The notes beneath the pieces were generated by a model. It was not told where the DNA came from. It searched no databases and saw only the letters and a list, made by a program, of their open reading frames with translations. This document shows, in pieces, positions 18,692-37,764 of a DNA stretch of 64,000 nt. This DNA is from Planctomycetota bacterium (lineage in GTDB: Bacteria; Planctomycetota; UBA1135; UBA2386), in the NCBI GenBank assembly GCA_965228735.1, contig OZ245838.1:3296001-3360000 (forward strand), read 5' to 3'. Made by a program: the position numbers and the translations under genes. Position 1 is the stretch's first letter; the number at the start of each line of letters is the position of its first letter.

Positions 18692-19888
18692 TCAGTCGCC
18701 GGGAACGACCGCAGCGCTCGGCCCGGGCCAGCTCCAGGCGATCACGTTCGTGAGGCATCGAACGGTTCCGCCGCTCGGCGCGATCGCCGCGACATCGATC
18801 GGCAGCACCGCGACCCCGACCTCCCGGAAGGCCCGAGCCGCCACCTCGTCGAGCTCCGGCAACCCGTAGGCCGGCATGTAGGCCCGGCGCCCGTCGGCCC
18901 GGCGCTCGATCACGGCGTTGTTCCAGGTCAGCACGTTGCCGTCTTCGCCGTGCACGATCGGCAGCCGCCGCACGGTCAGGCCCTGGCGTTCGAGCTCGTT
19001 GAGCACGCACTCGTAGCGCGCCAGCAGACCCGAGTGCAGCGCCACCTGCGTCCACGCGTCGAAGTCCGGCACGTTGTCGGCCGGCTCCCGCCCCAGCAGC
19101 TCGAGGCCCAGAACCGGGTCGCCGAGCAACACGGTCCGTTCATCGACGACGGTCATGAACATGTCGAGGTGCTCGTGCGGCGGCGCGGGGCGGCCGACGA
19201 CGACCAGCGGACAACCGAACATGCGCGCGAACGCCGCCTCGATGTCGTCGGTCATTCCGTTCTCCAGATTGTCGGTGACCGTCTTCCAACCGATGAACGC
19301 GTGCGTGCCGTTGCACGCGACATCGCCGCCCTCGAACGAGTAGCCGGTCGGAAAGCAACGCGCGCTGGGCGCGGCCGACGCGTGTGCCCCCGCGAGATCG
19401 CCGAGGTACTCGGGGTCGACCCGATCGATCCTCGGCGTGAGGAACGCGGACCGGTCGCCGTCACGAATCGCCACGTACCGATCCCGAGCCCACGACGTCA
19501 CGGGGCGCCCGACGACGAGCGTGCACGGTCGGTCTCGGATCGCCGGCGCTTCGAGAGCCAACGCACGCGCGAGGTGGTCGGCCTCGGCCTGGCCGTGGAC
19601 CGCGATGGAGACCCGCACCGCGGGCGGCAGCGACCGCAGCAGGTCACGGCAGGTCGGCAACCATTCCGCCATCGCGTCCGGGTCGTAGTGCAGCACGATG
19701 TGGTCGATCGCGGCGCAGCCTTCCGGGAACGGCGTCGGCGGCAGCTGGGCCGACGCCCGCGCTACCGTCACCGATGGTCGGTGCGGCAACGCCTGGAACG
19801 ACTGTGCTGCCAGCGGCACCCCGCAGGCCGCCGACGAGAGCACGGTGACAAGCCAGCGGAACCCGCCGTCCCTCATGGATCGTTTCAT
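18692..19888 (-). CDS. Secreted agmatine/peptidyl-arginine deiminase-like protein (amidinotransferase fold)
   Basis: WARD, FEGGD, HLDMF and C-terminal GGTVRCLT catalytic Cys; signal peptide. Start placed downstream of the sigma54 motif (19888 or 19876). Confidence 0.7.
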   Translation of the reverse strand: MKRSMRDGGFRWLVTVLSSAACGVPLAAQSFQALPHRPSVTVARASAQLPPTPFPEGCAAIDHIVLHYDPDAMAEWLPTCRDLLRSLPPAVRVSIAVHGQAEADHLARALALEAPAIRDRPCTLVVGRPVTSWARDRYVAIRDGDRSAFLTPRIDRVDPEYLGDLAGAHASAAPSARCFPTGYSFEGGDVACNGTHAFIGWKTVTDNLENGMTDDIEAAFARMFGCPLVVVGRPAPPHEHLDMFMTVVDERTVLLGDPVLGLELLGREPADNVPDFDAWTQVALHSGLLARYECVLNELERQGLTVRRLPIVHGEDGNVLTWNNAVIERRADGRRAYMPAYGLPELDEVAARAFREVGVAVLPIDVAAIAPSGGTVRCLTNVIAWSWPGPSAAVVPGD

Positions 19889-19900
19889 CGGCGTTGCACT

Positions 19901-19916
19901 AGCAACGCGCATGCCA
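19901..19916 (-). promoter_or_regulatory. sigma54 -24/-12 promoter
   Basis: TGGCATGCGCGTTGCT. Confidence 0.75.
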
Positions 19917-23471: not shown

Positions 23472-25154
23472 TCAGCGACGTTCGCCGGCGACGAGATCCC
23501 ACCGGTCGCCGGGACTCAGCCAGACGGGTTCGGGCGCGCCGCCGTTGTCCGCGGCGCTCGCCTCGAGGAAACGGCCGCAGAGTCGGCGCCAATCGTAGAT
23601 CGCGATCTTCGACGCGCCGATGACCTCGAGCTCGTGCCCCGCGACGACGGCCGCGGTGCCTTCGTCGACGCCGATCCCGATGAGCTGCGGGTGGGTCTCG
23701 ATGAGGCCGGCGAGGTCACGCATCCGGTTCCGCGCGAGGAAGTGCTGATCCACCGCGCAGCCCGGCAGGAACGCGAAGCCGCGGTCGTAGCCCTCGCACG
23801 CCATGTCGCGATTGCCGAGCGGATTTCCCCGCACGAGGAAATCACCCTGAATCGTCGCGCCGGCGCTGCTGCCACCGATCACCCCGCCGCGCTCGAGCAC
23901 GGCGCGAAAGGCCGGCATCGCGAGGGTATCGGCAAACGCGTCGACGAGCCGCCACTGCCGACCGCCGCCGAACCACACGCCCGTCGCGTCGGCGAGAACA
24001 GTGAGGCGCTCGGGCGTCACTTCGTCGGGGTGCGCACAATCGAGGACCGCGACCTCGGCACCGCGCTTCTCGAACGCACCGCGCAGGTAGAGCCGCCGGT
24101 CACGCGAGCCGCCGCGGCCGCCGCGGGGCGCGGGACTCGCGCTCGGCACGAGCACGATCTTGCCATCAGCGCCGCCGGCGAGCGCGACGAAGCGGTCGAT
24201 CACGGCGGCCGGCAAGCGGCCGCCGCCGGCGAGCATGACGGCACCCGACGGCACGCGCGGCGCTGCCATCGTCGCCGGCGGCCACGCAGCGCCGACGCGC
24301 GCCGCGGCGGCGCGCTGCCAGCTCACGAGGTCCGCGCGTTCACCGGCACTCAACCGCACGATCTTCTCTTCGTGGCCCGCGCCGGCCGGCAACACGAGCG
24401 TCACGTCCGAGGCGCCGAGCACGCGCATCGCGCGCCCCTGCACGACGAGTGCAGTGCCCTCGTCGACGCCGAACCCGAACGCCCCGCGCGTCTGGGCGAG
24501 CGCTCGCCGCAGCCGCGGCAGGCGCTCCCGCGCGCGGAAGTGCTGATCGCCGATCGCGCCAGGGACGAGGTCGAGGCCCTGACCGAGCACCGGCTCGGGG
24601 TTGCCCGACTGGATCATCGTGCGGGTCTGGATCGCCAGGCCAGCCGAGCTGCCGCCGACGACACCGCCGCGGTCGAGCAACGCCATGACCTCGCGTTCGA
24701 AGCGGGTGCCGACGTAGGCCTCGGCGAGCCGGCGCTGCTGCCCGCCACCGAACCAGACCGCGGTCGCGCGGCGGAGCGGAGCGCAGAACTCCTCGTCGTT
24801 CGCGCGCTCGCGATCGCGGGTATGGAGCACGACGAACTCGGCATCGGGCCGACTCTCACGCCACTGGGCGACGAGCCGCGCCTGCGAACTCTCGGAGTCG
24901 GCGCGCGAGCTCGCCGTCGGCACGAGAACCACGACCGCCTCGTCCCCGCCCGCGAGCGCGAAGAACCGCTCGTAGATCGCAGCCGGCAACCGGCCGCCAC
25001 CCGCCAGAATGCGCGCACCCGGCACGCCGGCGGGATCGATCGCGCGAGCCGCACACGTCGGATCGGCGCGCGGCGTGGATGACTGGGCAACGGCAGTCGC
25101 GCTCGCGAACGCAAGACCGAGGCAGGCGACGAGGACGGGCAGGCAACACCTCAC
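23472..25154 (-). CDS. cphB: Secreted tandem double-domain cyanophycinase / peptidase S51
   Basis: Two repeats of LAGGG, VP(T/S)AS, VWFGGGxQ, GGSSAG, DQHF, GVDEGTA; signal peptide. Confidence 0.8.
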   Translation of the reverse strand: MRCCLPVLVACLGLAFASATAVAQSSTPRADPTCAARAIDPAGVPGARILAGGGRLPAAIYERFFALAGGDEAVVVLVPTASSRADSESSQARLVAQWRESRPDAEFVVLHTRDRERANDEEFCAPLRRATAVWFGGGQQRRLAEAYVGTRFEREVMALLDRGGVVGGSSAGLAIQTRTMIQSGNPEPVLGQGLDLVPGAIGDQHFRARERLPRLRRALAQTRGAFGFGVDEGTALVVQGRAMRVLGASDVTLVLPAGAGHEEKIVRLSAGERADLVSWQRAAAARVGAAWPPATMAAPRVPSGAVMLAGGGRLPAAVIDRFVALAGGADGKIVLVPSASPAPRGGRGGSRDRRLYLRGAFEKRGAEVAVLDCAHPDEVTPERLTVLADATGVWFGGGRQWRLVDAFADTLAMPAFRAVLERGGVIGGSSAGATIQGDFLVRGNPLGNRDMACEGYDRGFAFLPGCAVDQHFLARNRMRDLAGLIETHPQLIGIGVDEGTAAVVAGHELEVIGASKIAIYDWRRLCGRFLEASAADNGGAPEPVWLSPGDRWDLVAGERR

Positions 25155-25516: not shown

Positions 25517-25873
25517 ATGAAGAAGATCGAAGCCTACGTCAAGCCGTTCCGGCTCGCGGAGATCCGCGACAGGCTCGCAGAACGGCGATTCGACGTCCTG
25601 CGGGTCCACCGCGCCGAAGAAGTGCGCCCCGCGGAAACGTACACGGAGACGGTGCAGGGCGTCGCCTACGAGGTCGACTCGACTCCTCGCGCATTGATCG
25701 TGTTGCTCGTCGAAGAGAAGGACCTCGAGGAAGCCATCCGCCTCATCCAGAGCGTGGGCAAGACCGACCACGCCGGGGACGGTCGCATCGTCGTCACTCA
25801 CGTCGACCTCATCGCCGCGATCAACCCGGACGAGAATCCGGACTCCGAGATCCCGGGACGGCATGTCAACTGA
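25517..25873 (+). CDS. Degenerate P-II family protein
   Basis: MKKIEAYVKPF, Tyr at position 51, TDHAGDGRIVV B-loop. Lacks GFGRQKG and the C-terminal RxR. Confidence 0.8.
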   Translation: MKKIEAYVKPFRLAEIRDRLAERRFDVLRVHRAEEVRPAETYTETVQGVAYEVDSTPRALIVLLVEEKDLEEAIRLIQSVGKTDHAGDGRIVVTHVDLIAAINPDENPDSEIPGRHVN

Positions 25874-26402
25874 CGGCCAGTACGTGCTCACCGCCCTCGG
25901 AGCGGCAATGGCCCTGCTGTCGAGCGACGCACGTCCCCAGGGGCAAGGCAACGCCATCGGGACCGTGACCATCGCGGCGCCCGTGTTGGCAGGTCCTGCG
26001 CACGCATCGGCTGACGGCCAGTTCAGCCTGCGCTGGCAGGTCTCGCTCGACGACGTCGAGGATGCGGTCGCAGCCGCAGTCGAGTTCGAACTCGAAGAGC
26101 GCGCCGGCGACGCACGGACGCTGCTCGCCGCCGGCCATCATCTGGCGGCAGCGCTCAGCGGTCGCGACGACGGCGACTACGACTATCGCGTCAGAGCCGT
26201 GCAGACCGGCCACGCGATCAGCCCGTGGAGCGAGCCCGTCACGGTGCAGGTGCGGCATCACCCTCTGGGCTTCGCGCTGCGAATGTTCGCGGTCGGCGCG
26301 GTCGTATTCCTCGCGACTGCCGCGCTCGTGCTCGTCGGGCATCGGCGCGCCCGCCCGAGCGCCCATGCGACCGCCGCCGGCGACGCCGCGACCTCCGCCT
26401 GA
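25863..26402 (+). CDS. Membrane-anchored protein with FN3-like domain
   Basis: FSLRW...EFELEE...LSGRDDGDYDYRVRA.....SPWSEP.TVQV.HH, then a C-terminal transmembrane segment. Confidence 0.65.
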   Translation: MSTDGQYVLTALGAAMALLSSDARPQGQGNAIGTVTIAAPVLAGPAHASADGQFSLRWQVSLDDVEDAVAAAVEFELEERAGDARTLLAAGHHLAAALSGRDDGDYDYRVRAVQTGHAISPWSEPVTVQVRHHPLGFALRMFAVGAVVFLATAALVLVGHRRARPSAHATAAGDAATSA

Positions 26403-26414
26403 CCTCGAAGCGCC

Positions 26415-27833
26415 ATGAACATCCAGTTCCTCGACCCATGGGTCGCCGGTGGGTTGCTTGCTGCCTTCAGCATTCTGTGGGTGTTCCTCGGCTGGTACTG
26501 GGGGCGCAAGAACAGCGACGTCGACGACTTCATGCTGGCTGGCCGCAAGGTCGGGCTCGCGCTCGGCAGCGCGACGGCGATGGCCACGTGGGTGACCAGC
26601 AACACGACTCTCGTCGCGCCCGAGCTCGCGTTCAACTTCGGCATCTGGGGCATGCTCGGCTACTCGCTCGGATGCGTGGGCCTGCTGCTGTTCGCGCCGA
26701 TGGCGTCCCGCATCAGGCACCTCATGCCCCGCGGATACACGAGCGGCGACTTCGTGCGGCTGCGGTATGGCCGGGCGGCGTGGCGGGTCTTCCTGCTGAT
26801 CTCCGTCGCCTACAGCGGCGCCTGGCTCGTCAGCCTCGGTTCCGCCGGCGGCCTGCTGATCCAGGCGCTCAGCGGCATTCCGTTCCTCGTCGGCGCGACG
26901 GTGATCCTGGTGATCTGCGTGCTCTACACGCTGCTCGGCGGCCTGCGGGCCGTGATCGGCACCGACTTCATCCAGACCATCGTGATCATCTCGGGTGTCG
27001 TACTGGTCGGCGTGATGACGCTGCAGCAGGTCGACCTGCAACAGGTTCATGCCCGCCTCAGCGATGTCCGCCCGCGCCTGCTCGACGCGCTCATGCCGGC
27101 GGCGGTGATGTTCCTCTTCAACAACCTGCTCTTCGGCATCGGTGAGATCTTTCACTCGAACGTCTGGTGGAGCCGCGCGTTCGCGTTCGACCGGGGCGTC
27201 GGGTTCAAGGCCTACCTGACCGCCGGTCTGCTCTGGGCGCCGATCCCGATCGCCGCCGGCTTCATCGCGCTCTCGGCGCCGGCCCTCGATCTCGCCGTGC
27301 CGCGCGCCGACATGGTCGGGCCGCTCGTGGCCGCGAACGTGCTCGGGGTGGGCGGCGCCGTTCTGCTGTTCATCGTGGTCTTCTCGGCGATCGCGTCGAG
27401 CCTCGACTCGCTCCTCGCAGCGACGAGCGACCTCGTCGTCGAAGACATCTACCGGCGCCACCTGCGCCCGAACGCGACTCCCACTCAGCTGCGCCGGGCC
27501 GCGTCGACCACCATCGTCGCGCTCGGCGTGCTGACCTGGGTCATCGTCGCGCTCGACATCTCGACCCTGGCCAAGCTGCTCAACTTCGCCGGTGCGCTCG
27601 TCGCGAGCACGATCTGGCCGATCGCGGCCGGCCTCTACTGGCGTCGAACGAACCCGCTGTCAGCGACGCTGGGGATGGCCCTCGGATCGATCGGCGGCCT
27701 GCTCGCCTACTTCCTCATCGACTGGTACGTCGCGGCCCTGGTCGGCGCCGCGATCTCCATGACGATCGTGCTCGCCCTCACGTTCGTGCGGCCGAGTGAC
27801 TTCGACTGGCGTCGACTGGGAGCCGGATCATGA
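26415..27833 (+). CDS. Sodium:solute symporter (SSS family)
   Basis: DDFMLAGRKV, ATWVTSNT, YTLLGGLRAVIGTDFIQ, SAIASSLDSLL; about 13 hydrophobic segments. Confidence 0.9.
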   Translation: MNIQFLDPWVAGGLLAAFSILWVFLGWYWGRKNSDVDDFMLAGRKVGLALGSATAMATWVTSNTTLVAPELAFNFGIWGMLGYSLGCVGLLLFAPMASRIRHLMPRGYTSGDFVRLRYGRAAWRVFLLISVAYSGAWLVSLGSAGGLLIQALSGIPFLVGATVILVICVLYTLLGGLRAVIGTDFIQTIVIISGVVLVGVMTLQQVDLQQVHARLSDVRPRLLDALMPAAVMFLFNNLLFGIGEIFHSNVWWSRAFAFDRGVGFKAYLTAGLLWAPIPIAAGFIALSAPALDLAVPRADMVGPLVAANVLGVGGAVLLFIVVFSAIASSLDSLLAATSDLVVEDIYRRHLRPNATPTQLRRAASTTIVALGVLTWVIVALDISTLAKLLNFAGALVASTIWPIAAGLYWRRTNPLSATLGMALGSIGGLLAYFLIDWYVAALVGAAISMTIVLALTFVRPSDFDWRRLGAGS

Positions 27834-27952
27834 CCGTTCCGCCGTTCGTCCTCGAAGCGTTGGTCTACGCCGCGCTGACCGTGAGCGCGGCCGCGCCGAT
27901 CGTGCTCCTCGCCCTGCTGTTTCGAGACTGGAAGAGAGGCAACCTGTGGTAG
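27830..27952 (+). CDS. 40-aa single-transmembrane small protein (not in ORF track)
   Basis: MTVPPFVLEALVYAALTVSAAAPIVLLALLFRDWKRGNLW*. ATGA overlap with the symporter stop, and overlaps the next GTG start. Confidence 0.75.
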   Translation: MTVPPFVLEALVYAALTVSAAAPIVLLALLFRDWKRGNLW

Positions 27953-29034
27953 CCACACCGACCCTGCATCCTCGCCTGCAAGGCCCGATCGACGTGCGCA
28001 GCCCGCACGTCGGACTCGAGCACCCGCGCCGACTGCTCGCGACGGTTCCCGAGAACCCGAGCGCCCTGCTCGCGCTCGCGACCCGTCACATCGTCTCGGC
28101 CCTGCAGTTCGACCGTGAACTCGTGACCCAGCTCTGCCGGCTCGCGGCGAGCATCGAGATGCAGCCGAAGCTGCTCCACCTGCCGCTCACGGGCAAGATC
28201 CTGATCACCGCGTTCCTCGAGCCGAGCACGCGGACGCGGCTGTCGTTCGAGAGTGCGTGGCACCGACTCGGCGGCGACATCCTGTCCATCACCGAGGCGG
28301 CAACGACGGGGATCGCGAAGGGCGAGAGCCTCCGCGACATCGCCGAGATGTTCAGCAACTACGGCGACGCGGTCGTGCTCCGTGACAACAACGAGCACTC
28401 GGTCTACGAGATGCTCGACACGCTGCGGGTTCCGATCATCAACGCCGGCAACGGCATCGACGAGCACCCGACGCAGGCACTGTCCGACATCTACGCGATC
28501 GTGAAGTGGCGCCCGCAGCTCCTGACGGACGAGCCGGGCGACCGACTGCGGATCGGCATCATCGGCAACCCGGCGAAGATGCGGACGGTTCGCAGTTTGC
28601 TGCTCCTGCTGAGCCTCTTCCCGCACGCGATCGACGAAGTCGTGGTCGTCAGCGGCGCCGGCACGGCGGATCCGTTCGATCCCGGCCAGCGCGAACTGCT
28701 CGAGGAACGCGGTCTCCGCCTCAGGGTCGAACGACAGCTCCAACACGTTCTGCAGACCCTCGATGTCGTCTACATCAACTCGATCGCGTGGATCGGCGAC
28801 ACGTTCGAGCGCCTGACGGGCGATCTCCGGCTGACCGCCGGTTCGGCCGTCAAGGACGGCGCGATCATCCTCCATCCGCTCGCCCGCGGCGCGGAGCTCG
28901 ACGTCAGCCTCGATGACACCGAGCACAACTGGTACTTCAGCCAGGCCCGCGGCGCGACCTTCCTCCGCATGGCGCTGCTCACCTGCATGGTCGAGCGCGT
29001 GCATCGCGTCGCCGACGTCGAACCCCCGGCGTAG
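27946..29034 (+). CDS. Aspartate carbamoyltransferase-like enzyme with non-canonical acceptor site
   Basis: FLEPSTRTRLSFE, KGESL, NAGNG..EHPTQAL, RTVRSL, HPLAR. The YMTRxQxER motif is replaced by YINSIAW. Confidence 0.85.
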   Translation: MVATPTLHPRLQGPIDVRSPHVGLEHPRRLLATVPENPSALLALATRHIVSALQFDRELVTQLCRLAASIEMQPKLLHLPLTGKILITAFLEPSTRTRLSFESAWHRLGGDILSITEAATTGIAKGESLRDIAEMFSNYGDAVVLRDNNEHSVYEMLDTLRVPIINAGNGIDEHPTQALSDIYAIVKWRPQLLTDEPGDRLRIGIIGNPAKMRTVRSLLLLLSLFPHAIDEVVVVSGAGTADPFDPGQRELLEERGLRLRVERQLQHVLQTLDVVYINSIAWIGDTFERLTGDLRLTAGSAVKDGAIILHPLARGAELDVSLDDTEHNWYFSQARGATFLRMALLTCMVERVHRVADVEPPA

Positions 29035-29061: not shown

Positions 29062-31098
29062 ATGTGTGGCATAGCCGGCATCTTCCATCTCGACCGCAAT
29101 CGCCCCGTCGACCCCGCCCTGCTCGCGGGAATGGCGGCGATCCAGCACCACCGCGGGCCCGACGGCTGTGGGCACCACGTCATCGACGATCGGGGCGTGG
29201 GGTTCGCCCACGCCCGGCTGGCGATCATCGATCTCGAAAACTCTGGACAGCAGCCCCTGGTCGCCGGAGGGCAACGCTGGATGCTCACGCACAACGGCGA
29301 GTTCTACGACTACGCCCGGATCCGGGCCGACCTCGCGACCCGCGGCGCCAGGTTCACGACGAAGAGCGACTCCGAGATCGTGCTCCACCTGGCCGAACGC
29401 CGCGGGCTGGAGGGCGCCCTGCCGCACCTGCGCGGCGAGTTCGCGTTCGGGCTCTACGACCGTGAACGGGACGAGCTCACGCTCGTGCGCGACCGCTTCG
29501 GCGTCAAGCCGCTCTACTGGACGCGAACGAGCAACGGCATCGTATTCGGGTCGGAGATCAAGGTGCTCTTCGCGCATCCCGACGTCCGACGGGAGTTCGA
29601 CGACGAAGGTCTGTTCCACCAGTTGATGCAGACCATCGTGCCCGGGTCGACCCCGTTCGCGGGAGTCCACCAGGTCAAGCCGGGACACGCGCTCACGGTC
29701 CGCCGCCAGAACGGCGATCTGCTGATCGAGGACCGCCGCTACTGGGACATGCCGTTCCCCGAGTGGAACGACCGCGGTCCGGACCGCCCGGAACAGGACG
29801 TCATCGAGGAGGTCCGAGCGCGCTTGCTCGAGGCGGTGCAGCTGCGGCTCGTCGCCGACGTGCCGGTCGGATGCTATCTCTCCGGCGGCATCGACTCGTG
29901 CTCGATGCTCGGGCTCGCGGCCGCATGCCGTCAGGACGCGGTCAAGGCGTTCACGATCGGCTTCGACAACAAGGACTACGACGAGACCGAGATCGCGCGG
30001 GAGATGGCTCGGTCGGTCGGTGCGGACCAGGACGTGCTCGCGCTGGACGCTGGCCATCTCTACGACCACTTCGTCGAGACCCACTGGCACACGGAGCGAA
30101 CGATCTACAACACGCTCGGTGTGGCCAAGCTGCTCATGAGCCGGCATGTCCACCGGGCCGGTTACAAGGTCGTGATCACCGGCGAAGGCTCCGACGAACT
30201 CTTCGCCGGCTATCCGTCCTTCCGGAACGACCTGTTCGCGCACGGCCTCGCGCATCTGCCGGCACCCGAACGGGAGGCGATGCAGGAGGCGCTGGGCCGG
30301 TCCAACGCCGTCTTCCGCGGCGCGATGCTGCCCGTCGAGACGCATGACGACCCGGATCTCGAGAGGGTGTGCGGCTTCACCCCGACCTGCCTGCAGCCGT
30401 GGCTCAATGCCTCGCGCCACGTCGCGCCGCTGATCGATGGCGACCGACGGGCGCGGCTGGCGGGCTACAGTCCGGGCGCAGCGATCGCGAACGCCCTGGA
30501 CGAGAGCGCGATGCGCGGCCGTCATCCGCTCGACGTCGCGCAGTACGTCTGGATCAAGACGATGCTCGAAGGCCAGATCCTGACCTGGGGCGGTGACCGC
30601 GTCGACATGGCCAACTCGATGGAGGCACGTCCCGCGTTCCTCGATCACCACCTGGCGGAGTTCGCCGCGACGATCCCGCCGCAGTATCGGATCCGCGGGA
30701 TCACCGAGAAGTGGGTCCTGCGTGAAGCCATGAAGGGCGTGCTGCCGCGCGTGCTCTACGAACGGGAGAAGTTCGCGTTCATGGCACCACCGGCGCACAC
30801 CGACCCCGCGAAGCGCAAGGCGCTCGGCGCCCTGACGAGCCGATACCTGAACTCAGGGTCCATCCGCCACTCCAACCTGCTCGACGAAGGCGGCGTCCGG
30901 GACGTGCTCGACCGCTACGCCGACGACAGCCGACCGCGCGATGAGCTCGTGCAGCTCGATGCCGTCGTCAACCACCTGCTCGGAGTCCAGATCCTGCACG
31001 ACCAGCTCGTCGATCAGGACGTGCCCGCGCTCGCAGCAGCGCGAGCGGACGAGCTCGGCGACGGGGTCGTCGCCGTGGCCGAGCCTGTCGCGCGTTAA
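29062..31098 (+). CDS. asnB: Asparagine synthetase B-like glutamine amidotransferase
   Basis: MCGIAG (N-terminal Cys), HRGPD, HNGEFY, RDRFGVKPLY, LSGGIDS, TGEGSDE, DRVDMANSMEAR. Confidence 0.9.
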   Translation: MCGIAGIFHLDRNRPVDPALLAGMAAIQHHRGPDGCGHHVIDDRGVGFAHARLAIIDLENSGQQPLVAGGQRWMLTHNGEFYDYARIRADLATRGARFTTKSDSEIVLHLAERRGLEGALPHLRGEFAFGLYDRERDELTLVRDRFGVKPLYWTRTSNGIVFGSEIKVLFAHPDVRREFDDEGLFHQLMQTIVPGSTPFAGVHQVKPGHALTVRRQNGDLLIEDRRYWDMPFPEWNDRGPDRPEQDVIEEVRARLLEAVQLRLVADVPVGCYLSGGIDSCSMLGLAAACRQDAVKAFTIGFDNKDYDETEIAREMARSVGADQDVLALDAGHLYDHFVETHWHTERTIYNTLGVAKLLMSRHVHRAGYKVVITGEGSDELFAGYPSFRNDLFAHGLAHLPAPEREAMQEALGRSNAVFRGAMLPVETHDDPDLERVCGFTPTCLQPWLNASRHVAPLIDGDRRARLAGYSPGAAIANALDESAMRGRHPLDVAQYVWIKTMLEGQILTWGGDRVDMANSMEARPAFLDHHLAEFAATIPPQYRIRGITEKWVLREAMKGVLPRVLYEREKFAFMAPPAHTDPAKRKALGALTSRYLNSGSIRHSNLLDEGGVRDVLDRYADDSRPRDELVQLDAVVNHLLGVQILHDQLVDQDVPALAAARADELGDGVVAVAEPVAR

Positions 31099-31568
31099 GG
31101 ACCGTCGGACTCGGCAGCGCGCTGCGGATAGAGCAGCAATGGGATCGAGCTCTTCCGAACGACGCCCTCGGCGACGCTGCCGCCGAACAGACGTTCGAGC
31201 CCGGAGCGGCCGTGCGTCGCCATCGCGATCATGTCGGCGTCGAGCGCCTCGGCCTGCTCGACGATCGTCTCCGCCACATCGAGACCGCGCACCGCCTCGA
31301 TGCCGATGCGCTCGAGCGGCGCGAAGCTGCCACGCAGTTCTTCGAGGCGCCCACGCGCGGTCTTCAGAGCCTCCTCGAGGTCCGGCGCGACCGCCGGCAT
31401 CGCGGGCACGCTCGGGATGCCGGGCGCGACGATGGTGACGGGATCGACAACGACGTGCAGCAGCGTCAGTCGTGCATCCAGAGCAAGCGCCAAGGCTGCT
31501 ACCGGCTCACACATCTGCAACGAGAGATCGGAGAAGTCCGTAGCGGCGACGATGTGAGGTGTGGTCAT
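31095..31568 (-). CDS. Universal stress protein
   Basis: IVAATDFS, LLHVV, ADMIAMATHGRSGLERLFGGSVAEGVVR. Confidence 0.9.
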   Translation of the reverse strand: MTTPHIVAATDFSDLSLQMCEPVAALALALDARLTLLHVVVDPVTIVAPGIPSVPAMPAVAPDLEEALKTARGRLEELRGSFAPLERIGIEAVRGLDVAETIVEQAEALDADMIAMATHGRSGLERLFGGSVAEGVVRKSSIPLLLYPQRAAESDGP

Positions 31569-31579
31569 CCCCGGCAAAC

Positions 31580-31595
31580 TGCAAGCCGCGTGCCC
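31580..31595 (-). promoter_or_regulatory. sigma54 -24/-12 promoter
   Basis: GGGCACGCGGCTTGCA. Confidence 0.7.
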
Positions 31596-31697
31596 TGCCC
31601 CGCGAAATCCGATCTCGCTGCAGCGCACGGACGCGGTTCACTCGTGCGATCCCCCAGATGCGGCGAGCACGGGCGAACCCGCGCTCGCGCGGCGACG

Positions 31698-32593: not shown

Positions 32594-33961
32594 ATGACGA
32601 CCGAACGACCTGCGACGCAAGGCCAGGAGCGCATCACGGCCGACCTCTATTCCCCGACGGACCACGTCGAACACCACTTCGCGCGCCTCGCGACGATCGG
32701 CGTTCAACCGGACGGATCCATCAACCGGATCGCCTGGACCGACGCCGAGTCGCAGGCCATTGCGATGATCCGCTCCGAAGGCGAGGCCTTCGGGCTGACC
32801 GGCCGGTACGACGCGATCGGCAACCTGATCCTGTCACTGCCTGGCAAGGCCGAACGCCGCATCCTGGTCGGCTCCCACCTCGACTCGGTGCCGCACGGCG
32901 GCAACTACGACGGCGCGGCCGGCGTGGTTGCCGGGCTCGAAGCCATGCGGCCGCTGGTCGCCGATGCGGAGAAGCTGCAAGCCGGCGTCGATCTCGTCGT
33001 GTGGCGCGGTGAAGAACACACCTACAACGCGGTCTACAAGGGCAGCGCGAGCGCGTTCGGTAACTCCGAGACCCACATCCTGCACAACGCCTACGATGGC
33101 GTGTCGCTGCGGGATGCGATCGCGAGTCAGGGGTTCGATCCGTCCTGCATCGACGAGAGCCGCCCTTCGTTGGGGCGCGACTACATCGATTCGATCCTCG
33201 GCTACTACGAGCTCCACATCGAGCAAGGCGTTCGGCTCGAGCGCGAGAACCTCGACCTCGGTGTCGTCACCAGCATCGCTGGTGACCGCCGCTTCCTCGT
33301 CGTCCTCGAGGGTCGGTTCGACCATTCGGGCGCGACCCCGATGGGCACGAACTTTCGTTGCGACTCCAACCTCGCACTCGGCTACATCATCACGCGGCTG
33401 GACGAACTCAGTCGCGATGCGGCCCGCGCGGGCAACGTGTTCACGCAGACCATCGGGATCGTGAATGCCGACCCGGAGATCGACCGCAAGCACCCGGCGG
33501 TGCACAGCAACTCAGTCACCAAGGTCAGCGGCCTCGCGTATTTCACGCTCGACATCATGTCGGCCGACGACACGTTCATGGACTCCTACTCGGCTGACGT
33601 CCTGCGTGCGGTCTGGCAGACCGCGAAGGAGTTCCACGTCAAGGCGGTGATCGAACAGACCGACACGGCGCGCGGCCTCCGTGAACTCGACCCGCGCCTT
33701 CGGAGTCGCCTGATGGCTGCCGCGCAGGCCCGCGACTTCTCGGCGGTCGAGATGCCGAGCGGCGCGGGGCACGACGCCGTGGCTGTGGCGCACGCGGATC
33801 GCGGCCCCCTGGGGGCCATCCCGGTTGGCATGCTGTTCGTCCCGTGCCGCGCCGGCATCAGTCACGCTCCGGAAGAGTTCGCCGAGGCCGATCACGTCGC
33901 GAAGGGAGCGGCGGTGCTCTCCGACGCAATGCGTGACATCGCGCAGCGAGGCGAGATCTAG
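32594..33961 (+). CDS. M20 Zn-dependent N-carbamoyl-L-amino-acid / allantoate amidohydrolase family
   Basis: GSHLDSVPHGGNYDG, WRGEE, ELHIEQG, DHSGATPM, MPSGAGHDA, GISHAPEE. Confidence 0.9.
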   Translation: MTTERPATQGQERITADLYSPTDHVEHHFARLATIGVQPDGSINRIAWTDAESQAIAMIRSEGEAFGLTGRYDAIGNLILSLPGKAERRILVGSHLDSVPHGGNYDGAAGVVAGLEAMRPLVADAEKLQAGVDLVVWRGEEHTYNAVYKGSASAFGNSETHILHNAYDGVSLRDAIASQGFDPSCIDESRPSLGRDYIDSILGYYELHIEQGVRLERENLDLGVVTSIAGDRRFLVVLEGRFDHSGATPMGTNFRCDSNLALGYIITRLDELSRDAARAGNVFTQTIGIVNADPEIDRKHPAVHSNSVTKVSGLAYFTLDIMSADDTFMDSYSADVLRAVWQTAKEFHVKAVIEQTDTARGLRELDPRLRSRLMAAAQARDFSAVEMPSGAGHDAVAVAHADRGPLGAIPVGMLFVPCRAGISHAPEEFAEADHVAKGAAVLSDAMRDIAQRGEI

Positions 33962-35334: not shown

Positions 35335-36128
35335 CTGCCGCTCCGCCGGCGTTCGAGCCGGCGCAGGGTGAGCTTCTTGGCTTCGAGGAAGGCCTCGTAC
35401 ATGTGCGAGGCGTCCCGAAACCGCCGGCGCGTCTCGACCTGCAGCGCACGCTGCAAGAACGGGATCATGTCCGGCGCCGTTCGACGCAGACGGTCGAGAC
35501 CCGCCATCGGCCACTTGTACGGCCAGTCCGGCAGCTTGCCGCTGAGCATCCGGTAGACGATCAAGCCGGCCGAGAACACGTCCGACCGGGCCGACGGGCG
35601 ACCCATCGCCTGCTCGGGCGCGACGTAGCCGATTGTGCCGGACGACGACGCCTGCAATGTCCGCGTCGAGTGCTTGGCGAGGCCGAAGTCCCCGAGCCGC
35701 AACGCGCCGTCGGCGAACAGGATCAGATTGTCCGGCTTGACGTCACAGTGGATGACGCGGTGCTCGTGCGCGTAGGCCAACGCCTCGATCAGCTGCTCGG
35801 CGAAATCGAGCGCCTTGCTCGTCGACATCCGGTAGCCCAGCCGATCGGCCAGACTGCGCTCGCCCTTCGGATAGGCCATCGTCAGCCGCCCGTCGATCAC
35901 CTCGGCGTTCTTGAGCGACAGGATGTTCGGGTGGTCGAGCTTGGCGCTGACCTGGATCTCGCGCTCGAAGTCCGCACGGGTGTCGGGGTCGCCGTCCGCA
36001 AGGGGCACCTTCAGCGCCACGACGACGCGCTCGAGCGTGTCGTAGGCCTCGAAGACGTCCGCGAACCCGCCGCGCGCGAGTCGTCGCTTGAGCTTGTACT
36101 TACCGAGGCGCTGGCCGACGCGGATCAT
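35331..36128 (-). CDS. Stand-alone cytoplasmic Ser/Thr kinase (non-RD)
   Basis: [34 protein letters not shown]-coupled to the PP2C gene. Confidence 0.9.
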
Positions 36129-36204
36129 CCGAGGGCGTCAGTCTGCCGAACGGAGTGCGTTCTTTCCATGTCCAAGTACCGGCGGGTGCCCCTACATTGC
36201 AGCG

Positions 36205-37764
36205 ATGCCGGACGAAATCGACCTCAGTCAGTTCGAGTCCAACCTCAAGCTCGTGAAGCTGCAGGTCGACGATTTCGAACGGATCGTGGACCTGCAGCGA
36301 CGCTGCTTCCCGGGCATGCCGGTCTGGACCAAGGCGCACATCGAGAGCCAGGTCGAGCACTTCCCGGACGGCCAGCTCGGCATCACCTACGACGGCAAGC
36401 TCGTCGCGTCGTCGTGCAGCCTGATCGTCGACTACGACCTGTGCTCCGACTGGCACGACTGGAAGGCCGTGAGCGACGGCGGCTACATCAAGAATCACGA
36501 CGAGAAAGGCGACGTGCTCTACGGCATCGAGATCATGGTCGATCCGGAGTATCGCGGCATGCGGCTCGCGCGCCGGCTCTACGACGGCCGCAAGGAGCTC
36601 GCCCGGGAGCGCAACCTCAAGGGCATCGTGATCGGCGGCCGGATCCCGGGCTACGCCGCCCACAGCAGCGAGATGACGGCGCACGAATACGTGCAGAAGG
36701 TCGAGGCCAAGGTCCTCGTCGACCCGGTGCTCACGGCGCAGCTGGCGAACGGCTTCGAGCTGCGGCAGGTGATCCCCGACTACCTGCCGAGCGACGAGGA
36801 CAGCGCCGGCTGGGCGACCCACATGGAGTGGACCAACGTCGACTACCGCCCGTTCCGCAAGCGGACGATGCAGCCGACCCAGGTCGTCCGGATCTCGACC
36901 GTGCAGTACGGGATGCGCGCCATCTCGACGTTCGAGGACTTCGAGCACCAGTGCGAGTTCTTCGTCGACACGGCGGGGGACTACAAGTGTGACTTCATCA
37001 CGTTCCCGGAGCTGTTCACGACCCAGCTCCTGTCGCTCGTCGAGGCCAAGCGCCCCGGCAAGGCGGCGCGCGCCCTCGCCGACTTCAACGAGCGCTACCT
37101 CGAGTTCTTCACGTCGTTGGCCGTGCGCTACCACGTCAACATCGTCGGCGGGAGCAACTTCGCGGTCGAGGACGAGAAGCTCTACAACGTCGCCTATCTC
37201 TTCCGCCGCGACGGCTCGATCGACAAGCAGTACAAGATCCACGTCACGCCCGCGGAATGGCGCTGGTGGGGCGTGAACGGCGGCAGCACGGTCGAGGTGT
37301 TCGACACCGACTGCGGCCGCATCGCGATCCTCATCTGCTACGACATCGAGTTTCCCGAGCTCGCCCGCATCGCGGCGAAGAAGGGTGCCCAGATCATCTT
37401 CGTGCCGTTCAACACCGACGAACGCTACAGCTACCTGCGCGTTCGCCACTGCGCGATGGCGCGCTGCGTCGAGAACCACGTGTACACGGTGCTGTCCGGC
37501 TGCACCGGCAACTTGCCGCTCGTCGACAACGCCGACCTGCACTACGCCCAGTCGGGCATCTACACGCCGGCGGACATCGCGTTCTCCCGCGACGGCATCG
37601 CGGCCGAGTGCACGGCCAACGTCGAGACGATGATCATGCAGGACCTCGACATCGAGCAGCTGCGCAAGCACCGCTACAAGGGCACGGTGCAGAACTGGCT
37701 CGACCGCCGCACGGATCTGTATCGGGTGCGATACCGCGAGGCGGGCAGCGACTTCGAGGTGTGA
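36205..37764 (+). CDS. Bifunctional GNAT acetyltransferase / carbon-nitrogen hydrolase
   Basis: [15 protein letters not shown] (acetyl-CoA motif A); FPE, QYKIH and ICYDIEFPE (Glu-Lys-Cys triad). Confidence 0.9.

Follow-up and report, generated by a model that had tools for sequence, protein, structure and literature searches.

This locus raises the question of what an enzyme labeled in databases as an aspartate transcarbamylase (ATCase, PyrB) uses as its acceptor once the residues that hold the side chain of aspartate have been replaced. The gene is located in the window, by which we mean the whole stretch of 64,000 nucleotides that was analyzed:

27946..29034, + strand: PyrB-like transcarbamylase (marine pseudo-ATCase), GTG start, 362 aa; predicted glutamine N-carbamoyltransferase

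An intact carbamoyl-phosphate site and a replaced aspartate site

The GTG start is backed by the record of an identical 362-aa protein and by relatives of 353-402 aa. Compared with E. coli PyrB, to which it is 34% identical, the protein carries an N-terminal extension of ~40 residues. It contains the Pfam domains OTCace_N and OTCace, and its AF2 model (pLDDT 84.6) has the two-domain OTCace fold, with ATCases as the top structural matches (Foldseek probability 1.0, TMq ~0.73). The protein matched 17 NCBIfam transcarbamylase models and scored under the cut-off in every case, including the best match TIGR00670 (180 versus a cut-off of 237 bits) and NF002032 (172 versus 263).

To map the active site, the protein was aligned to E. 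coli PyrB (from NC_000913); residues are given as E. coli/query pairs. The carbamoyl-phosphate site is kept (S52/S94, T53/T95, R54/R96, T55/T97, R105/R146, H134/H174 and Q137/Q177), as are the alpha-carboxylate ligands (K84/K125 and R167/R213) and T168/T214, P266/P311 and L267/L312. S80 of the E. coli enzyme falls opposite a one-residue gap in the query, where the invariant T121 is likely its equivalent. According to the accessible text of PMC4581275, R229 and Q231 hold the beta-carboxyl of aspartate, R167 and K84 hold the alpha-carboxyl, and all known ATCases have RxQxER. In the query this 240s loop is changed at four positions (T228>N278, R229>S279, Q231>A281 and K232>W282), and further changes are found at D162>N208, Y165>K211, G166>M212 and P268>A313. 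HMMER independently paired YINSIAW of the query with YVTRIQKER of the P. abyssi ATCase.

The alignment thus bears out the original prediction that STRT, the K84-equivalent, R105, HPTQ and R167 are retained while YMTRxQxER is replaced by YINSIAW, with Ser279 standing for R229 and Ala281 for Q231. We also looked for an Arg/Gln pair at 229/231 and found none in the alignment. The predicted changes of GDL to GNP and of HPLP to HPLA are present as well, and the ornithine-type (OTCase/PTCase) motifs DxxxSMG and HCLP, both of which are found in the source genome's own OTCase (L002), are absent from the PyrB-like protein as had been claimed. The H(T/S)LP motif of UGTCase is likewise absent, the query having HPLA.

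These changes are fixed in the family. When the query is aligned with its 119 best relatives (120 rows, the identical P0002 left out), N278, W282, M212, P209, R213, K125 and HPLAR are invariant, HPLA being found in 120/120, and the carbamoyl-phosphate site (SxRT, R105, HPxQ) is invariant or nearly so. Position 279 is S in 100 rows and A in 20, and position 281 is A in 119/120. In GTDB genomes, relatives of the query were found in at least 582 stretches; the motif was checked in the best 80 of these, where YIN[SA]I[AS]W occurs in 78 loci and YINAIVW in one, with one locus not parsed, and HPLAR in 79. Because the changed residues are invariant across relatives, chance or decay does not account for them. 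A pseudogene was rejected on the same ground, together with the intact ORF and a GC3 (90%) similar to that of the neighboring genes.

A paralog apart from canonical ATCases

The source genome has four transcarbamylase genes: an OTCase, an AOTCase-like gene, the PyrB-like paralog and the following canonical gene:

C1 ~2.70 Mb (L001:604-2085): canonical PyrB of the source genome, with the motifs YMTRAQRER and HPLP

The idea that the PyrB-like gene is the only ATCase of the genome was therefore rejected. Canonical PyrB accompanies the paralog in the source genome and in 5/5 other genomes tested (6/6). At its C terminus the canonical PyrB of the source genome is extended by a segment that contains two CxxC-like pairs and resembles a fused PyrI zinc domain. 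No match to a multifunctional-type dihydroorotase at E 1e-15 was found in the source genome.

To place the family, we built a quick maximum-likelihood tree from 63 rows; it is midpoint-rooted, its placement of OTCases is not trusted, and the UGTCase sequence was left out. Nine family rows form one group (SH-aLRT 98), nested in an HPLA-type group of 29 rows (SH-aLRT 100) and apart from the canonical ATCases. The same clade contains the K. koreensis protein ACV27461.1, which is 61% identical to the query and has the motifs YINAIAW and HPLAR.

Could the protein still be an ATCase with altered aspartate binding, its carbamoyl-aspartate being amidated, for example, to carbamoyl-asparagine? Its closest sequences and folds are those of ATCases and the database names agree, but both beta-carboxylate ligands are missing family-wide, the protein falls below every ATCase model cut-off, it belongs to a separate clade in the quick tree, and a canonical PyrB is present in 6/6 genomes checked. 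We regard this reading as very improbable. A canonical RxQxER PyrB elsewhere in the genome, the retention of R167 and the family-wide replacement of the beta-carboxylate ligands instead make the protein a non-aspartate paralog. To this extent the original prediction is partly supported, and its proposed acceptor would be a new specificity; the divergent family itself had already been published in 2013.

Within Planctomycetota, matches with E below 1e-100 were found in 3/301 genomes searched, the source genome counted, and two further genomes matched at about 1e-61. None of four other genomes of the source organism's family matched. This rarity suggests horizontal spread or frequent loss. The named hosts are mostly marine, hypersaline and soda-lake genera by habitat; Kangiella aquimarina and Idiomarina are among the carriers. 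One coral-metagenome study contains 68% of the words of the source operon, and no RNA data set was listed as containing them, which says nothing on expression either way.

The tree also contains a sister clade of 14 rows (SH-aLRT 100), with proteins of 354-374 aa that are ~41-43% identical to the query (two measured): P0130, P0134-P0139, P0142-P0144, P0146, P0148, P0151 and P0163. The carbamoyl-phosphate site is largely lost in these proteins (no KGE, STRT eroded, often NPTH or HPTN), and R105- and R167-like residues are mostly retained. The genes are solitary in 3/3 loci seen (L101:401-1468, L102:5583-6716 and L103:13-801). With these features the sister proteins would seem to be pseudo-enzymes that have lost catalysis and may bind a ligand instead. 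That the degenerate proteins serve as a second subunit of the PyrB-like enzyme was rejected, as 80/80 of the loci surveyed have no second transcarbamylase-like ORF and the sister genes stand alone. More distant HPLAR-type transcarbamylases (P0124, P0125, P0127, P0129, P0132 and P0141), one of them from an Actinophytocola MAG, have the 240s-loop motifs NSIAF, NSLIW, QNALV and NSLTN and may have further specificities.

The gene is part of a conserved operon

On the + strand the PyrB-like gene is preceded by four genes and followed by one, with overlaps or short gaps throughout, and a candidate hydrolase gene lies further downstream:

25517..25873, + strand: divergent PII-like protein, first operon gene (Pfam P-II, E 2e-6)
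25863..26402, + strand: 179-aa exported or membrane-anchored protein (no Pfam or NCBIfam match)
26415..27833, + strand: sodium:solute symporter family transporter, 472 aa (Pfam SSF)
27830..27952, + strand: 40-aa single-helix membrane peptide (from its sequence)
29062..31098, + strand: AsnB-type glutamine-dependent amidotransferase, 678 aa (TIGR01536, 424 bits, over cut-off)
32594..33961, + strand: M20 N-carbamoyl-amino-acid hydrolase-like gene (TIGR01879, hydantoinase/carbamoylase family, over cut-off)

The nearest solved relative of the symporter is the urea-proton symporter DUR3 (E 2e-35; the runner-up is at 9e-12), and the transporter likely imports a urea-like (ureido) solute. The 40-aa peptide, whose gene overlaps the symporter stop (ATGA) and the start of the PyrB-like gene by 7 nt, is likely an accessory subunit of the transporter. 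The amidotransferase starts 27 nt after the PyrB-like stop. Equivalents of Cys1, R49, N74, G75, D98, SGGxDS, E348, D351, E352, Y357 and K449 are found in 73/73 full-length amidotransferase orthologs, whose glutaminase and ATP-binding residues are thus intact, and the region around AsnB D384/R387 (the acceptor pocket) aligns unreliably. The enzyme is predicted to amidate a 1-carboxylate.

Other neighbors in the window were considered and set aside. A USP gene (31095-31628) was rejected as an operon member since it lies on the minus strand, and links to three further genes were rejected because cyanophycinase-like, deiminase-like and GNAT-nitrilase genes occur in 0, 0 and 1 of 80 loci, respectively:

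18692-19912, - strand: apparently secreted protein, weakly matching the peptidyl-arginine deiminase type (E 8e-4, below cut-off)
23472-25154, - strand: cyanophycinase-like (S51) protein with two domains in tandem, apparently exported; its gene diverges from the operon
36088-37764, + strand: GNAT + carbon-nitrogen hydrolase fusion, with a homolog near the operon in L066 and L113

Gene context was surveyed in the best 80 of at least 582 confirmed genome matches, many of which are close kin and not independent. The amidotransferase is present in 77 of these 80 loci (56-76% identity) and lies directly downstream in 72. Two of the three loci without it end within 200 nt of the PyrB-like gene; in the third, Thiorhodospira sibirica (L016:7980-9056), the PyrB-like gene is solitary and an amidotransferase ortholog (64%) is found ~700 kb off on the same contig. 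The symporter occurs in 70 of the best 80 loci, and by a loose pattern test 64 of these 70 have a similar hydrophobic micro-ORF between symporter and PyrB-like gene. Homologs of the 179-aa protein are found in 49/80, an N-carbamoyl-amino-acid (M20) hydrolase in 41/80, an isochorismatase-type cysteine hydrolase, related to N-carbamoylsarcosine and biuret hydrolases, in 33/80 and an adjacent MarR gene in 14/80. The PII-like gene is present in six of the 80 (one Planctomycetota and five Leptospirales/Leptospiraceae-type MAGs) and may make the system responsive to nitrogen or energy status. Similar results were obtained from metagenomes, where we examined the top 17 of 80 loci: 14 represent the family, with the symporter in 14/14 and the amidotransferase in 13/14. 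The context of the PyrB-like gene contains no pyrimidine genes, and no dihydroorotase-like gene (cyclic amidohydrolase) was found in any of the best 80 loci. The operon partners point to ureido or amide chemistry.

Orthologs of the M20 hydrolase encoded in the Ectothiorhodospira mobilis operon (see below) are 43-100% identical to it in other loci, and the M20 hydrolase scores 386 versus a cut-off of 520 with the model of the N-carbamyl-L-glutamate amidohydrolase ErtE. The M20 gene of the window, 1.5 kb downstream of the operon, is the only match to the E. mobilis hydrolase in the source genome and is 32% identical to it. It is possibly a degradative step, judged by its family, and not the usual ortholog. 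No amidase ortholog was found in the source genome, which is 93% complete.

These partners bear on whether the pathway is catabolic. In such a salvage route the symporter would import a ureido compound that the enzyme phosphorolyses to carbamoyl phosphate, as in UGTCase, to feed pyrimidines or nitrogen recycling. In favor of such a route, the loci encode hydrolases and an importer resembling DUR3, a catabolic UGTCase function has been proven for another pseudo-ATCase subgroup (accessible text of PMC4016543), and an 'alternative pyrimidine pathway' has been suggested in print for the cyanobacterial genes asnB-pyrB2-pydC (bioRxiv 10.1101/2022.08.17.504260, in the part available). However, carbamate kinase scored over the cut-off in 0/5 genomes (the control passes in 2/14), the best 80 loci are without a dihydroorotase-like gene, and the H(T/S)LP motif that the available part of PMC4581275 gives for UGTCase is missing from the query. 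Moreover, the partner found most regularly is a synthetase that consumes ATP, and phosphorolysis would be redundant alongside the M20 hydrolase. Overall, a catabolic role appears improbable.

A candidate pathway for N-carbamoyl-L-glutamine 1-amide

Alpha-carboxylate ligands, a neutral side-chain pocket and an ATP-dependent amidotransferase lead us to infer that the product is an N-carbamoyl amino-acid amide. A compound of this type, N-carbamoyl-L-glutamine 1-amide (CGA), was described in 1991 as a salt-protection osmolyte of Ectothiorhodospira marismortui (= E. mobilis). No genes for CGA were found in the literature searched; theses and subscription journals, which may hold an earlier assignment, were beyond the search. 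In the draft genome of E. mobilis DSM 237, locus L009 contains MarR, M20, amidase, PyrB-like and AsnB-like genes, with sucrose synthase on one side and a PfkB kinase on the other. The only transcarbamylases in this draft are PyrB (next to PyrC), OTCase and the PyrB-like paralog, and a NodU/TobZ-type carbamoyltransferase was not found in it. Of the carbamoyl transferases found in the DSM 237 draft, the one encoded in the operon is thus alone in having no assignment. Another such pair from E. mobilis, WP_090484788/WP_090484786, belongs to the accession series of the DSM 4180 proteins WP_090483553 and WP_090483711, and from these accession numbers the pair would come from DSM 4180, the type strain of the producer.

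Gene context favors glutamine over asparagine as the acceptor, since a known compound, CGA, fits and the producer species carries the operon. The loss of R229 favors glutamine over glutamate, and the retention of R167 suggests that carbamoylation precedes amidation. We consider the odds slightly better than even that the PyrB-like enzyme and the amidotransferase make CGA. In the first step the PyrB-like enzyme would convert carbamoyl phosphate and L-Gln to N-carbamoyl-L-Gln, with the free alpha-carboxylate held by R167 and K84. With S/A279 and A281 the pocket would lose positive charge and gain space, and the invariant N278, W282 and M212 would line it for a longer neutral side chain. In the second step the amidotransferase would form CGA from N-carbamoyl-Gln, ATP and Gln, following the logic of Ngg and AsnO in NAGGN synthesis. 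The DUR3-like symporter and its 40-aa partner would then import or recapture the solute and, where present, the isochorismatase-type amidase and the M20 decarbamoylase would break it down again to glutamine, ammonia and CO2, the two hydrolases undoing the two caps (carbamoyl and amide).

A bolder reading goes further: a glutamine N-carbamoyltransferase, in itself a new transcarbamylase specificity, and its amidotransferase would be the missing CGA pathway, and CGA would be a widespread, overlooked solute that is made, imported and recycled across six groups, namely Gammaproteobacteria, Alphaproteobacteria, Spirochaetota, Myxococcota, Planctomycetota and marine cyanobacteria. We hold this tentatively and give it, for pathway and groups jointly, a probability of roughly 0.45.

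Several observations count against CGA. A 2013 review knew the compound from one organism only (PMC3857566, accessible text), in contrast to the at least 582 GTDB stretches that encode relatives of the query, with the motif checked in the best 80. The family is represented in R. baltica (accessible text of PMC4016543), and the solutes given in the available part of an NMR study of this species are glutamate, sucrose and mannosylglucosylglycerate; the word 'carbamoyl' does not occur in the text of that study (PMC3694870). RB13301 does not appear in the R. baltica salt-upshift lists in the accessible supplements of PMC2754498, and the ORFs within about 3 kb of it that are listed there, RB13294 (ratio 1.25) and RB13300 (ratio 1.42), go up. 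The published R. baltica data on salt induction and CGA are ambiguous. In picocyanobacteria, the available part of bioRxiv 10.1101/2022.08.17.504260 describes the asnB-pyrB2-pydC cluster as commonest in warm N- and P-depleted water and notes it for Prochlorococcus in the Red Sea. This cluster, likened to ours by gene types and not by sequence, is probably the same system as the PyrB-like/AsnB-type pair, and such a distribution sits poorly with a four-nitrogen osmolyte. In addition, the source genome has no amidase ortholog at 93% completeness and has the divergent (32%) M20 gene. The pocket changes would also suit asparagine or a hydrophobic amino acid as well as glutamine.

In an alternative reading, the two enzymes make some other N-carbamoyl amino-acid amide, derived from Asn, from Glu with one amidation, or from an amino acid that is neutral or hydrophobic. 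This amide would store nitrogen or act as a minor solute, and CGA would arise in another way. The residue map describes the pocket as non-aspartate and goes no further, CGA is not reported from carriers such as R. baltica, the PII-like gene at the head of the source operon hints at nitrogen control, and the picocyanobacterial cluster tracks N-poor water. On the other hand, the operon is found in the species that produces CGA, whose DSM 237 draft contains no further carbamoyl transferase without an assignment, and no N-carbamoyl amino-acid amide besides CGA is known to us from these bacteria. We consider this alternative rather unlikely, though a good deal less so than a catabolic role.

The divergent family and its gene context are already published; a substrate and a pathway would be new. 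If the CGA pathway is as proposed, a compatible solute that has had no genes since its description in 1991 would gain them, CGA would be no one-organism curiosity, a textbook enzyme family would acquire a new acceptor specificity, and the published pseudo-ATCase family would receive a function. The label 'aspartate carbamoyltransferase / asparagine synthase' would be corrected for many genes of marine genomes, and a nitrogen-rich, unmonitored metabolite would be predicted in seawater microbes.

Comparison with known systems

The 'pseudo-ATCases' of Barba et al. 2013 include a marine subgroup, which in the accessible parts of that paper is 'Subgroup 3' of the text and the row HPLA, AIA/AIS/SIA of Table 1, table and text numbering the subgroups differently (PMC4016543). 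The query is, by its sequence, a member of this subgroup and not an ATCase, OTCase or UGTCase, as the K. koreensis protein with YINAIAW and HPLAR, 61% identical, indicates. It shares STRT, HPTQ, HPLA and SIA with the subgroup, with no sequence difference, and the context agrees: a Na+ symporter and an Asn-synthase-type gene flank the query, and a divergent N-carbamoyl hydrolase lies 1.5 kb downstream. The accessible text gives no substrate or pathway for the marine subgroup, the assays being of a different subgroup, UGTCase (PMC4016543). We found no paper that assigns a substrate to the family in a search that left theses, subscription journals and some supplements beyond its reach.

With ATCase (PyrB, EC 2.1.3.2) the query shares the fold, the carbamoyl-phosphate site, K84 and R167; it differs in having NSIAW for RxQxER, GNPxxMR for GDLxxGR and HPLA for HPLP. 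UGTCase (Rxyl_2847) is similarly ATCase-derived, without RxQ, and acts on a non-aspartate alpha-amino acid. Its own features are H(T/S)LP and a place beside carbamate kinase and allantoinase in purine catabolism, whereas the query family has HPLA and an amidotransferase partner.

The marine subgroup, as listed in the accessible text of PMC4016543, includes Synechococcus WH8102. The asnB-pyrB2-pydC cluster of marine picocyanobacteria differs in how it is read, the available text taking it as a possible alternative pyrimidine route (bioRxiv 10.1101/2022.08.17.504260). It resembles the query system in having the same three gene types.

In NAGGN synthesis the alpha-amino group is capped by one enzyme and the alpha-carboxyl is amidated by an AsnB-type enzyme, giving an uncharged solute. 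The query system shares this logic of capping and amidation with AsnO and Ngg, and MarR is adjacent in 14/80 loci. It differs in that its cap would be carbamoyl and not acetyl, it has no peptide ligase, and its amidotransferase is far below the AsnO cut-off (284 versus 570 for the NAGGN amidotransferase model TIGR03104). No protein scored over the cut-off for Ngg (TIGR03103) in 5/5 genomes. By this analogy, the query system is not a NAGGN system but likely operates in a similar manner.
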